Assembly (NCBI GenBank): GCA_951406725.2
Contig: OX597834.1
Coordinates: forward strand, 20,832,001-20,896,000
Direction of reading: 5' to 3'
Source of the DNA: Octopus vulgaris
Lineage: Eukaryota
DNA: 64,000 bases
A model generated the notes under the pieces. It saw only the letters and a list, made by a program, of their open reading frames with translations. It was not told the DNA's origin and ran no database searches. Shown piece by piece: positions 483 to 64,000 of the stretch. The number at the start of each line of letters is the position of its first letter. Positions within the stretch are counted from its first letter, which is position 1. Made by a program: the position numbers and the translations under genes.

Positions 483-680
483 GGGAAGGTTTATGAAAAT
501 AAATAAAAGACGAAGGCAGGTGGTGTACAAACAATTGTATTAGTATGGCGCTCAGGAATAGAAATAGAAAAAGTCTTTTATGTTTCAAGCCTATGCTCTT
601 CGACAAAGATACACAAAAGAAACAAGTAAGAAACAAGGAGAGAAAAAAAATGCGTGTAGGAGCTAACAGTCCATCATGGC
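483..680 (-). mobile_element. Family D short TA-embedded element with decayed hammerhead motif
   Basis: Near reverse complement of 38963-39160; flanked by (TA)n; hammerhead remnant at 574-610. Confidence 0.8.
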
Positions 681-697
681 ATATATATATATCTTGT

Positions 698-15461: not shown

Positions 15462-15682
15462 AAGTACATTATTTACATTTGACAGATATTTGTCCTCATC
15501 TTGTTTGTTGTTAACACAATGTTTCAGCTGATATACTCTCCAGCCTTCATCAGGTGTCCTGGAGAAATTTCGAACTGGGTTTCTCATTTCTAAGGTACTT
15601 TTCAATGTTGTTGTTGTTATTATTATTATTATCATTATTATTATTATCATTATTATTATTATCATTATTATTATTATTATTA

Positions 15683-16780: not shown

Positions 16781-17303
16781 TTTTTTTTTTTTTTTTACCA
16801 TGGCCTAAATTCCCCATTTGAGGGGTTAGCCGCAACAAGACACACACCAGCTCAAAAAGGCAAGCCCCGTCCTATGCTTGGGTAAAGGCATAGAAAGCAA
16901 CCCCCGATATCAGCAGCTGGGCCCCACATTATATGCTGGTTTACCCCTGCCATATCATGTTGGTTCCCTACCCCTTTGAGCAACATCAAATTCACCCATC
17001 CATCCACCAACACTCTCCAAGCTTTCCTGTCATTTATAAACTCTCTTGCCTCTCTCACTCCAACACCTCTAACCACCAAGGCTTTCCTCACTCCATCCAT
17101 CCCCACAAACCGAGGTTTGCCTCTGGTTCTGCTGCTTACCACTTCTGCCTTCATCACCCTCCTTACCATCCACTTCTCATCCATCCTCTCCATGTGGCCA
17201 AAACACCTCAACATTCATATATCCATTCTGGTCCATAGATTTTCTCTCACTCCTACTCGCCTTCTCACCTCCTCATTCTTCATCCTGTCCATCCATGTCA
17301 CAC
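16781..17303 (-). mobile_element. 5'-truncated RTE-clade LINE with poly(A) tail and 10-bp TSD
   Basis: GVTWMDRMKNEEVRRRVGV...LRCFGHMERMDEKWMVRRVM...RGKPR...DRKAWR; T16 at 16781-16796; caacaagtaa at 16771-16780 and 17304-17313. Confidence 0.92.
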
Positions 17304-19972: not shown

Positions 19973-20092
19973 AGAGCATAGGCTCGAAACATAAAATACT
20001 TTTCCATTCTTCCCAAGCGTTAAACTAATACACCTGCTTGTTGTTGTTCCTTCACCTATCTTCATCTTTTGCTTTCTATAAATTTGAACTAT
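19973..20092 (+). mobile_element. Family D fragment (3' half of the hammerhead and downstream sequence)
   Basis: agagcataggctcgaaacataaaatac...cacctatcttcatctttt, then (TA)n. Confidence 0.7.
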
Positions 20093-22250: not shown

Positions 22251-22253
<3 letters not shown>

Positions 22254-22408
22254 AGAGTTTACGAAAGAAACAAAAGATGAAGACACGTGGTGTACAAAAC
22301 AGATGTATTAGTATAACGCTCAGGAATAGAAAAAGTATTTTACGTTTCGAGCCTACGCTCTTCTACAGGAAGGGACACAGAGAAAACAAGGAGCGAAAAA
22401 AATGTGTG
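22251..22408 (-). mobile_element. Family D element with hammerhead motif (core CUGUAGA, 22336-22373)
   Basis: Minus strand: ccttc CTGTAGA A GAGC gtag GCTC GAAAC GTA aaata; flanked by (TA)n. Confidence 0.8.
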
Positions 22409-22458
22409 TATATATATGTCCTTCTTTTAGGTTTTATCTTGACTGTTTATGCATGTTT

Positions 22459-27065: not shown

Positions 27066-27225
27066 AGTTAATCCGAACATGAAAACACAAAGAGAAAACA
27101 CAACAGCGCGAGGACCTGGAACAAGTATAGTATTATTGGACGCTCAGGAAAGAAGGAAAAAAGGAGGGCTTAACGTTTCAAGCGGAGCTCTTCGTCAGAA
27201 ACATAGGAAAAGGAAAGATCCAAAG
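27066..27225 (-). mobile_element. Family D2 TA-embedded element with canonical-core hammerhead (27168-27202)
   Basis: Minus strand: GUUU CUGACGA A GAGC ucc GCUU GAAAC GUU AAGC. Confidence 0.8.
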
Positions 27226-27792
27226 AGTATATATGATGGACTTCTTTCAGTTTCCATCAACCAAATCCACTCACAAGTCTTTGGTTGGCCTGAAATTTTA
27301 GTAAGAGACACTTGCCTGATGTGCCAGGCAGTGGGACTGAACCCAGAATCATGTAGTTGGGAATCAAGCTTCCTACCACACAGCCACACCTGTGCCTACT
27401 CTTTTTTTCTCTTTTACTCTTTTACTTGTTTCAGTCATTTGACTGCGGCCATGCTGGAGCACCGCCTTTAGTCGAGCAAATCGACCCCGGGACTTATTCT
27501 TTGTAAGCCCAGTGCTTATTCTATCGGTCTCTTTTGCCGAACTGCTAAGTGACGGGGACGTAAACACACCAGCATCGGTTGTCAAGCAATGCTAGGGGGA
27601 CAAACACAGACACACAAACACACACACACACATATACATATATACGACAGGCTTCTTTCAGTTTCTGTCTACCAAATCCACTCACAAGGCATTGGTCGGC
27701 CCGGGGCAATAGCAGAAGACACTTGCCCAAGATGCCACGCAGTGGGACTGAACCCGGAACCATGTGGTTGGTGAGCAAGCTACTTACCACAC
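27226..27792 (-). mobile_element. SINE A 5' half (27226-27397) followed by a young near-full copy (27398-27792)
   Basis: High similarity to 2578-3004. Confidence 0.9.
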
Positions 27793-38014: not shown

Positions 38015-38051
<37 letters not shown>

Positions 38052-38052
<1 letters not shown>

Positions 38053-38199
38053 GTTACCGATTTTTTTTCCTCCGTCTTCCCTTCTCTGGATCTTTCCTTT
38101 TCCTGTGTTTCTGACGAAGAGCGTCCAATAATACTATATTTATTCCATGTCCTCGCGTTGTTGTGTTTTCTGTTTGTGTTTTCATGTTTGGATTAACTA
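38052..38199 (+). mobile_element. Family D2 element with hammerhead 3' half deleted
   Basis: Reverse complement of 27066-27225, lacking the segment between two GAGC words. Confidence 0.8.
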
Positions 38200-38262: not shown

Positions 38263-38962
38263 GTAAGTGCATGTATGTAAATGTAGGCATCACTGTGGGG
38301 ATGTGAAATTTGTTTCCAATCCCCATGGTTTCTGGTTCACTTCCACAGTGTAGCACCTTGTGCATAAGTCTTCTGATATGCAGACCCTAGGGGAACTTGG
38401 TAGATGAAAACTGAAAGGATCCTATCATATACATATACATAGGAGGGAGAGAAAGATGAGAGAAAGAGGGATGAGAGTGAGAGAGATGAGAGAGATAAAC
38501 AGGTTGAACATAAAACAGTTGGAATATTTGGGTTAGTTTAAATGCTAAAGAGTTAATAAGACAAATAAGACAAAACCTTAATAAAGCGACTGTTCTTGAA
38601 ATCAAATTTCCTTGACTATAATTCGACCAATGCTTGGGGTGACTCAGAATCTGATGTTAGCACGAGAAATAGTCCTTCGTGTGAAAAAAATTATCTGAAC
38701 ATTTTCAAAGTGTGAATTTTCAAACGTGTTAATACAAATACAAGGATTTCATTGTCACTTGAACACTTTACGAGAGTGTTTAAAAAAAAATGAAACAAGA
38801 CCGTTTCAAAACTCTCAGAATATATTTATTCACTGTGACAAGACAAAAAATCTCTGACACTGAGAAAAATGACACATTCTAGGCTTCTTTCAAACAGACA
38901 GCATTATTTATACATTATCTTCATCATCATCATTTCAACATCCACTCTTCCATATTCAGGAC

Positions 38963-39160
38963 GCTGTGATAGATCGTTAGCTCCTACACGCATTTTTTTC
39001 TCTCCTTGCTTCTCTCCTTGTTTTTTTCTGTGTATCTTTCTGTCGAAGAGCGTAGGCTCGAAACGTAAAAGACTTGTTCTATTTCTATTCCTGAGCGCCA
39101 TACTAATACTGTTTGTACTCCACCTGCCTTCGTCTTTTGTTTATTTTCGTAAACCTTCCC
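38963..39160 (+). mobile_element. Family D element, best preserved copy
   Basis: Matches 483-680 and 53364-53559; CpGs intact; followed by (TA)n. Confidence 0.85.
39035..39072 (+). ncRNA. Minimal type I hammerhead motif with variant core CUGUCGA
   Basis: UCUUU CUGUCGA A GAGC guag GCUC GAAAC GUA AAAGA; perfect stems I and II. Confidence 0.75.
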
Positions 39161-39417
39161 GTTATATATATATATAAATGCGTTAAACTCCATTTATTTA
39201 TTTATATATTATACAAAAAATTCCACGTAAACACGAAGTTTCTACCTTTAAAAACAAGGAGTTACAAGCTCTTTACTTGTGTGATTTTTTGCTACCTTGG
39301 TAACTATTTATTTTTTCTGTGTTAATTGTTAGCAAGGCAAAAATACACTCCTATATTATATATATATATATGTATATATATCTATATATATATATTACAT
39401 ATTTACATATTTAATAC

Positions 39418-53363: not shown

Positions 53364-53366
<3 letters not shown>

Positions 53367-53559
53367 AGAGTTTAGGAAAAAAACAAAAGACGAAGACAGG
53401 TGGTGTACAAAACAAACAGATGTATTAGTATAATGCTCAGGAATAGAAAAAGTCTTTTACGTTTTGAGCGTATGCTCTTCTACAGAAAGGGACTCAGAAA
53501 ACAAGGAGAGAAAAAAGGAGAGAAAAAAATGTGTGTAGTGGCTAACGATCTATCATGGC
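53364..53559 (-). mobile_element. Family D element; hammerhead at 53453-53490 with GAAA mutated to AAAA
   Basis: Minus strand: ccttt CTGTAGA A GAGC atac GCTC AAAAC GTA aaaga. Confidence 0.8.
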
Positions 53560-54646
53560 ATCTACATATATATATAAATATATATATGCATATATATTTG
53601 TATATATATTCTTTATGTGTAAAAATATCCTTTTAACCATCATACCACAATAACAGCTTTAGTTCTCCTCTTTATTATTAAGAAACACATCATGTTCGTT
53701 TTAGAGAAAGACTTCATCAGCCTCAGATCACGAAGCGATTACGGTTTGTGTATATCGTTGAGAAAACTGTCAAATGCATATTTAAACATTTCTCGCAATC
53801 AACTGTTTTCTATTGATTATCCCATTGATATTAGATTGCAGCTGGTGCAATGGTGCAGATATCTGAGATGAAATCCTATTTTCTTGTCAAAACATTGATG
53901 CTGGTTATCTCCATAGCAAAACCCCTCATCGCTTAAAAATAGGAATATATTTGATATGATGGCAAATGAGTCAGTAACTCCAGGTTTGCTTCAAACACAC
54001 ACAGACTCACATACACACAAATCCACATACATATACATGTTCACACAAAAGCACATGCATACACACACACACACACAAACAAACAAACACGCAGACTTAT
54101 GCATACGCACAGCTATACACATTACAAAGCTATACCTTTTAGTCTTGAGTCATAAACACACATACATTTGTATGTGTATGTGTGTGTATACATATATATA
54201 TACATATATATATATATATACACATATATATACATGCATATATATATATGAATAACGATATATATGTGCGTACATATATATATATACATATGTATATATA
54301 CAAATATATATATGTATATATTTATATATGTACATATATATATACAAATATATATATGTACATATATACACAAAAATATACATATATATATATATATATA
54401 TTGATATACATATATACACACACATATATACACACACATATATATACACACACGTATATATATATATATATATGTATATATATACATATATATATATATG
54501 TGGGTTTATGTCTCAATACTAATATATTTAGATGTGTGTATATATGCATGTATATATATATGTGTGTGTGTGTGTCTGTATGCATCTGTGTGTGTACTTA
54601 TACATAACTATATTATACACATGACTATATATATGACTATATATAT

Positions 54647-63339: not shown

Positions 63340-63535
63340 AGTTCAAAATTTGTCCAAAAAACAAAAGACAGAGGCAGGTGAGGGAGCAGCAAACATATGA
63401 GAGATCAGTTTGACGCTCAGGGAAAAAGGAAAGAGTTTTTGATGTTTCAAACCTATGCTCTTCTACAGAAAGAAATGAGGAGAGAAAAAAAACAGATGGG
63501 GAGAAGCAAAAACTGGAGAGAAAATAAAACGTGTC
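63340..63535 (-). mobile_element. Family D element, diverged; hammerhead at 63436-63473
   Basis: Minus strand: tcttt CTGTAGA A GAGC atag GTTT GAAAC ATC aaaaa. Confidence 0.75.
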
Positions 63536-64000
63536 TACTCTATCCAATGTATTGAGTTCTGTACTAGATAATGCTTCCACTATGTAAAATATATTATTGA
63601 TATAGTCTACATCTGTTAAATTATCTTGTATATATGTGTGTATGTAAGTATGTTTATATCACTTATCTTCACAACACAAAATATTATATAAGTAAATATT
63701 ATAACACTCAAAATTGGTAACTGTTGCTTTCAATGAAAAAGAAAAATATTTTCTCTTTTACAAAAAAAAGCTCACATGCATAGAATTTCAATAAATATTG
63801 ACATTTCCTTACTATAGTTCAAATTATCAGCTAAAAATCTCAAAATTTTCTTCACGGAATAATTTTGGTTTTGCACTAAGTGTTTGTGTGTGTGTGTGTG
63901 TGTGTGTGATTAACACAACAAAAGAATTTTTTGTTCTGTTTTTCTGCTTTTTCTTGTCCTGTTTTTCGTTTTTCTCCTCTTTTAGTTTTCCACAAGAAAA

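Follow-up and report, generated by a model that had tools for sequence, protein, structure and literature searches.

The window analyzed, a 64-kb stretch of Octopus vulgaris DNA, is AT rich and dense in microsatellites and contains six copies of a repeat family of ~200 bp (blastn E values of 2e-68 to 1.5e-7). The six copies were also recovered by a profile search (E values of 2e-55 to 2e-27), and the reversed window, used as a control, gave no matches. A preliminary description of this DNA had placed copies at 483, 19973, 22251, 38963, 53364, and 63340, each touching (TA)n. Blastn, the profile search, and a count of TA distances confirmed these positions and the contact with (TA)n, and the copies are named here after these coordinates. 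In five copies, a (TA)4 tract starts no more than 2 nt from the 3' end, and in the sixth, this distance is 13 nt, compared with a background of 1.2% of non-TA positions within 3 nt and 4.2% within 15 nt. TA on both flanks was observed in only three copies (483, 53364, and 22251). The copies were sorted by eye into three subfamilies with different 3' ends, namely, alpha (38963 and 483), beta (53364 and 22251), and gamma (63340 and 19973), with gamma being ~70% like alpha in blastn alignments. Coordinates are compiled in Table 1.

Table 1. Hammerhead-bearing repeat copies in the window and elements of copy 38963
Feature	Position	Strand	Remarks and evidence
Alpha copy, full length (~200 bp)	38959..39160	+	Sole copy with the whole hammerhead motif intact
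Alpha copy	483..684	-	C3 lost, CpG decay; TA on both sides; blastn, alignment, profile
Beta copy	53364..53563	-	CUGUAGA, G12A; TA on both sides; blastn, alignment, profile
Beta copy, 5' truncated	22251..22410	-	Stem I broken, core and stem II preserved; TA on both sides
Gamma copy	63341..63547	-	CUGUAGA; blastn, alignment, profile
Gamma copy, truncated inside the core	19973..20088	+	Position 6 missing; blastn, alignment, profile
Delta copy (A6)	27067..27228	-	Core CUGACGA at 27198, stem I GUUU/AAGC, end at (TA)n; U6-only profile, E 1.3e-8
Second delta copy (A6)	38051..38197	+	(TA)n on both sides; alignment
Minimal type I hammerhead motif	39035..39072	+	Stem I UCUUU/AAAGA, stem II GAGC/GCUC, 4-nt loop
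U at core position 6 (consensus A)	39043..39043	+	5/5 window copies, contigs of three runs
Second GAGC, 25 nt past the predicted cut	39093..39096	+	Common to the A6 sister family and many PLE-type relatives
Conserved 3'-terminal segment	39123..39160	+	Second depth peak; alignment
Target microsatellite, (TA)7, 3' of the copy	39163..39176	+	

Copy 38963 begins with a pyrimidine-rich leader of ~80 nt, followed by the stem I strand UCUUU, the core CUG-U-C-GA, and an extra A. Its 3' part comprises the GAGC/GCUC stem II with its 4-nt loop, GAAAC-GU-A, AAAGA, the second GAGC, the 3' segment, and (TA)7. GAAAC-GU forms a palindromic stem III of the dimer type, and the cut is predicted to fall after A 39067. 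This GAAACGU palindrome, which would permit dimers, is present in three of the six copies (the G12A copy included), and three copies read ACAU as a result of CpG decay. The conserved segment at the 3' end is likely a putative recognition or initiation region for a reverse transcriptase. An upstream CCUAC (38982-38987) could pair over only 4 to 5 bp with GUAG(G) of the stem II loop (39052-39055) on the plus strand and may resemble the loop-2 pseudoknots of other hammerheads. Behind the (TA)n, at 39180-39335, lies an unrelated second repeat, which was matched by many contigs, at far lower depth, in all three sequencing runs described below.

Position 6 of the hammerhead core is almost always A, and the minimal type I hammerhead consensus is C3 U4 G5 A6 N7 G8 A9 ... 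G12 A13 A14 A15.1 ... U16.1 H17. A 25-nt core pattern with up to 2 mismatches gave five matches in the window and none in 100 shuffles. The cores read CUGUCGA (39040, plus strand), UGUCGA without C3 (606, minus strand), and CUGUAGA (22368, 53485, and 63468, all on the minus strand). U6 was thereby found in all five core-retaining copies, as previously claimed, and these span subfamilies that differ by up to ~30%; copy 19973 begins inside the core. Copy 38963 agrees with the consensus at every core position except 6, which is U. The further claim that both stems and GAAAC-GUA are retained held in full for this copy only, since the alignment revealed motif changes in the other core-retaining copies: (i) stem I of 22251 is broken (CCUUC/AAAUA), (ii) 53364 carries G12A, and (iii) 483 and 63340 show CpG decay (GCUU/GUUU and AUA/AUC). 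Judging from these sequence features, the motif may work like a hammerhead or derive from one, but it departs from the consensus. Rfam hammerhead models matched neither a U6 copy nor a canonical A6 copy at E values up to 10, and because the canonical copy was also unmatched, this test is blind to minimal forms.

Two related copies with the canonical A6, at 27198 (minus strand) and 38110 (plus strand), were absent from the preliminary description. This sister family, delta, shares stem II and the downstream motif with the U6 family, and a profile built from the U6 copies alone found 27198 at an E value of 1.3e-8, with no match in the reversed window. Stem I differs by a compensatory change, being GUUU/AAGC in delta and CUUU/AAAG in the U6 family. 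The presence of A6 in these sisters implies that the ancestor likely carried A6 and that U6 marks one lineage; in the window, this lineage accounts for six copies and the A6 family for two. Delta copy 38051-38197 lacks ~45 nt between its two GAGC words; the loss fits these words exactly and has the look of a deletion through microhomology.

At 15519-15553 on the minus strand, near a long TAA-type trinucleotide array, a different short repeat carries a minimal hammerhead with the canonical core CUGAUGA, an extra A, a stem II of 5 to 6 bp, the stem I ACAC/GUGU, and a CpG-decayed triplet; it is likely another family derived from Penelope-like elements (PLEs). A 120-residue frame at 16855-17214 (minus strand), which we take to resemble the C terminus of an RTE-type LINE protein, gave no Pfam match. 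No tRNA genes, and hence no tRNA-derived head of a SINE, were found in the window by a search that decayed heads could escape. Among 150 of the 416 Rfam rows over the window, the only matches were microsatellite-driven microRNAs, and an Rfam search over the repeat itself gave no match.

The stretch, or part of it, is contained in 20 sequencing runs under four species labels, none of those listed being recorded as RNA, which is neutral as to expression. Four runs were aligned to positions 38800-39340 at 80% likeness, and 19,319, 7,949, and 12,645 contigs were placed from runs X5, X6, and X7, respectively, which represent three species labels and three studies only. The depth of the family contigs climbs from about 38952-38970 and drops beyond 39160. 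A at position 6 amounted to 0.64% (X5), 0.39% (X6), and 0.18% (X7) of depth, similar to other private changes, in a measure that favors consensus words and excludes relatives less than 80% alike, such as the A6 sisters. Since A6 reaches only 0.2 to 0.6% of depth in these three runs, U6 does not represent local decay. The free position 7, in turn, splits into C, A, and U, with A at 23 to 26% and U at 29 to 44% of depth, and G>A at 39065 accounts for only 4 to 7% of depth in these contigs. In X7, the rows listed fully explain the tally of changes reaching 5% of depth at G and A, and in none of them is a motif G or A affected; for X5 and X6, two or three changes at G and one at A are left without a position. 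C or G at position 6 may still occur among 20 difference rows outside the listing. An A-to-I editing signature was considered and rejected: X6 has a single A>G place, and X5 and X7 have none.

The loose ends listed, which exclude 880 others, show the motif next to divergent flanks, with (TA)n past the 3' end; behind 39176, the loose ends are (TA)n in 130 (X5), 65 (X6), and 90 (X7) contigs. In X6, the peak depth is 1.5 million compared with 6.5 for a single-locus flank contig, and six copies per 64 kb extrapolate to the order of 10^5 in a gigabase genome. These data suggest a family size of the order of 10^5 copies, the depth ratio itself being no true copy number. A further run, X22 (raw reads), is uninformative on abundance, since it provided only 25 reads, all of them less than 90% alike. 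Five of these reads, from two start points, have A6 and A7 with beta-like flanks and are possibly the A6 form of the U6 lineage in a more distant genome.

The centroid fold of the motif contains stems I and II, and its folding energy was no better than that of shuffled sequences (z of -0.1). Covariation had been proposed as a check of the family, and in 13 chosen sequences, stem I was indeed found to covary: 16 cells were changed on both sides, which was matched in 1 of 500 shuffles, and the covarying pairs of this hand-picked set are the inner three. Stem II is 100% paired in the 13 sequences, but the search pattern selects for its pairing. Two other structural proposals found little or no support. 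(i) U6 might lock an inactive rod by pairing with A15.1, but this pair has a probability of 0.42 and is only 0.2 kcal/mol better than the open junction. (ii) The second GAGC might act as a switch pairing with GCUC; the extension pair was present in 14 of 23 loop types compared with 9.5 expected, a weak result (P values of 0.035 with G-U pairs and 0.20 with Watson-Crick pairs only).

Conservation of the motif bears on the explanation that the ribozyme died once in a founder and has since been carried passively, in which case the fold would be unselected and its conservation would reflect ancestry, a GC-richer alignment, or mosaic subfamilies. Individual copies decay freely within the motif, as this explanation predicts, and Naiad PLEs thrive without hammerheads (PMC8557442). 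For one alpha/gamma pair, the comparison of motif and flanks gave a P value of 0.0014 in the multiple alignment and of only 0.052 in the pairwise alignment, with bounds chosen after the fact and flanks of low complexity. Depth in X5 was 9.4 million on the motif as opposed to 2.1 million upstream and 1.2 million downstream, with the second-highest value over the 3' segment, but fragmentation at polypyrimidine flanks can also yield such peaks. Passive carriage fits less well with the subfamily-level changes, which, among the rows listed, spare all of the 38-nt motif but position 7, with two changes, and the outer pair of stem I, whereas changes in the flanks are many. The pairwise alignment of the alpha/gamma pair, moreover, has no gap in the motif and 14 gap openings in the flanks. 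We consider passive carriage unlikely. Set against the alignment-dependent pairwise test, the pattern of subfamily-level change argues with moderate strength for selection on the hammerhead fold.

Metagenome contigs, scanned for the GAGC/GCUC motif with positions 6 and 7 left free, yielded at least 120 loci, the majority of which appear to be DNA of a small number of animal hosts. Among the 122 matches listed, 100 lead into the hammerhead triplet or a CpG-decayed version of it, and these 100 carry A6 in 97 cases (85 of the 88 distinct ones) and U6 in 1. Two loci link the motif to PLEs. In L039, it lies in sense ~675 nt after the stop of a PLE open reading frame (ORF; RVT_1 E value of 5e-8) in which a CxxC linker and a GIY-YIG-like segment were read by eye; in L007, it lies in sense ~95 nt after a PLE ORF stop. 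A CxxC linker marks the Neptune and Nematis PLEs, and (TA)n is a usual PLE target (PMC8557442); the clade of L039 and L007 was assigned from motifs read by eye and not from a tree. The second GAGC after the motif was present in 34 of 43 distinct L039-type relatives as opposed to 10 of 79 background windows. Across loci L009-L117, which are of the non-coral type, many PLE-type families have a conserved GGAGC 20 to 51 nt past the hammerhead, often followed by GTGTGCG. At L062 and L064, a pair of hammerhead copies abut on opposite strands, which matches the inverted layout known from PLE insertions.

The repeat family has the fixed 3' end, 5' truncation, and microsatellite target of a nonautonomous PLE. 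The PLE contigs resemble it over the ~35-nt motif and nowhere else, so that we infer the PLE origin from these relatives. The window contained no PLE ORF (Pfam on 150 of 250 candidate frames; best tblastn E value of 0.055) and no autonomous partner with reverse transcriptase and GIY-YIG for the U6 family. The octopus Naiad and Hydra entries, in the portion of Craig's supplement consulted, matched none of four motif words, and the strict family pattern had no match in metagenome and viral contigs; a looser pattern gave eight prokaryote matches that look like chance and were discarded. The nonautonomous PLE lineage proposed in the preliminary description thus receives indirect support from the motif 3' of PLE ORFs in contigs of two other animals, from the fixed 3' end at (TA)n, and from the dominance of U6 in thousands of contigs from three runs, but an autonomous partner was not found.

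As to autonomy alone, U6 could belong to an autonomous PLE whose 5'-truncated ends make up the copies, with no separate nonautonomous element involved, an explanation compatible with any view of the ribozyme. Truncation at the 5' end is the norm for PLEs (PMC8557442), and the ~95 nt between ORF stop and motif in L007 are close to the 80 nt upstream of the motif in copy 38963. Against it stands the common 5' start of three of the four alpha and beta copies, which recurs after a TA-like flank in a further contig junction, and we regard this explanation as doubtful.

The retrozyme that had been offered alongside the PLE lineage was not upheld: the copies are dispersed monomers, the ribozyme lies in the middle of the element, and only one head-to-tail joint is listed. 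This joint (39142 back to 38967), represented by one contig each in X5 and X7, is in line with a non-LTR retrozyme whose amplification proceeds from tandem arrays via circular RNA released by self-cleavage, and retrozyme families can consist mostly of monomers (bioRxiv 10.64898/2026.07.22.740005). However, none of the eight copies in the window is in tandem, the ends are fixed and show no circular permutation, and the minimal U6 core contrasts with retrozyme ribozymes, which are of the canonical, efficient type I (PMC7229834), making this route very improbable. At the joint, the first unit lacks its last ~10 nt, which recalls a pLTR plus tail; the depths of 24 and 20 perhaps reflect a single locus or a few loci.

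Published biochemistry indicates what a change at position 6 may entail. A natural A6C hammerhead cleaves at less than 0.1 per minute (PMC3088659), and in one context, A6C was ~10,000-fold slower in Mg2+ than in Mn2+ (PMC7151607). In pairwise mutagenesis, CUGA mutants had low activity and were not rescued, except by the C3-G8 swap (PMC9901934). The figures in the parts of the literature consulted concern A6C, and no cleavage rate for A6U was found there. For the PLE PAc in vitro, hammerhead mutants had no effect on insertion and unprocessed RNA was the main substrate (PMC11167929), and the role of the hammerhead in PLEs has been called unclear (PMC8557442). The U6 motif, by analogy, probably self-cleaves poorly or not at all. 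The preliminary description had left two options, a lineage using a natural A6U ribozyme or one that no longer needs cleavage; because CUGA changes are low in activity and PLE insertion is unaffected by hammerhead mutants, the published data favor the second.

The opposite explanation is that the U6 hammerhead is active in vivo, rescued by dimer formation, a PLE protein, or metal ions, and that cleavage still processes the element RNA. The other catalytic positions, the palindromic stem III, and the cleavable triplet look retained while position 7 varies, the PAc hammerhead cuts only with protein present (PMC11167929), Mn2+ rescues A6C (PMC7151607), and a double-hammerhead pairing is feasible (-14.7 kcal/mol). 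The freely predicted dimer, on the other hand, is a different and more stable fold (-22.4 kcal/mol), and since the U6 copies are dispersed monomers, dimers would need to form in trans. The absence of rescue of CUGA changes in pairwise mutagenesis (PMC9901934) also speaks against activity, as does the contig listing, in which starts do not accumulate at the cut site, with the reservation that contigs cannot show RNA ends. We rate an active U6 ribozyme as rather unlikely.

We adopt, at a probability of about 0.5, the reading that the family is a nonautonomous derivative of a Neptune/Nematis-type PLE pLTR that is copied uncut into (TA)n, with its fold kept and its cleavage crippled; this choice rests on the A6C and CUGA biochemistry and on the insertion of PAc without hammerhead activity. 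The steps would be as follows. (i) The short, protein-less element would derive from the pLTR of such a PLE, an origin suggested by its relatives. (ii) PLE reverse transcriptase and nuclease would copy the uncut element RNA in trans into TA microsatellites. (iii) A6U would strongly lower cleavage, and cleavage would be dispensable for insertion, as the published biochemistry suggests for both. (iv) Once A6U had arisen, selection might have gone on acting on the remainder of the core in the source copies; the hammerhead fold was probably kept for recognition while self-cleavage was probably crippled. (v) More speculatively, the loss of cleavage may have been advantageous, because a cut in the middle of the element would halve its 200-nt template.

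If these U6 hammerheads are genuine, surveys based on CUGANGA would all have missed them. The U6 lineage and its A6 sister in one genome offer a ready-made paired test of the need for the ribozyme: if U6 cleaves, the hammerhead consensus and the descriptors for genome searches need to be widened; if it does not, the family is in-genome evidence that PLE-mobilized RNAs keep the fold and not the cut. We put forward tentatively, at somewhat less than an even chance, the broader view that the U6 motif, with copies of the order of 10^5, is among the most abundant animal hammerheads and has been kept folded by selection through several radiations, either as a protein-rescued active ribozyme or as a noncutting recognition element whose loss of cleavage let a PLE parasite outcompete its A6 sisters.

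A number of known systems resemble the U6 family. (i) The minimal hammerheads in the pLTRs of metazoan PLEs (PMC4209133) are likewise type I, with a short stem I, one nucleotide inserted between A9 and stem II, G10.1-C11.1, a palindromic ACGU in place of a true stem III, and mostly dispersed single copies; the repeat family differs in having U6 as the norm and a stem II of 4 bp. The same study describes a core variant dominating a family, the compensatory U3-A8 of schistosomes. (ii) Neptune/Nematis-type PLEs, whose C-terminal GIY-YIG has a CX2-5CxxC linker (Craig 2021, PMC8557442), share with the repeat the identical GAGC/GCUC stem II, the core layout, and the targeting of microsatellites, as judged from this source and from L039 and L007, and L039 shares the second GAGC downstream as well. 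The repeat, however, has no ORF, these PLEs carry A6, and no similarity was detected outside the motif. (iii) The A6C hammerhead of phage Bcep176 (PMC3088659, PMC7151607) is also a natural change of position 6, but it is a single phage example with C, whereas the repeat has U, fixed in a very-high-copy animal retroelement. (iv) Animal non-LTR retrozymes (PMC7229834; bioRxiv 10.64898/2026.07.22.740005) are similarly short, noncoding, hammerhead bearing, and PLE related, but their hallmarks are tandem units that carry canonical active ribozymes, together with circular RNAs, in contrast to dispersed monomers with fixed (TA)n ends.

In the literature searched, a scope that did not extend to a survey of variant small PLE hammerheads (Lunse 2017), we found neither a natural U6 hammerhead nor a description of the U6 family, and the main text of an octopus repeat paper (PMC13282606) does not mention hammerheads. 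Craig's motif table has A6 in all 34 rows, the descriptors used to retrieve them having been based on the canonical core (PMC8557442). PLE remnants that are short, dispersed, and hammerhead bearing are ordinary, and family-dominating core variants are known as well; the U6 family is notable for a noncompensatory change that affects a position important for catalysis and is fixed throughout a very large family whose A6 sister provides an internal control.
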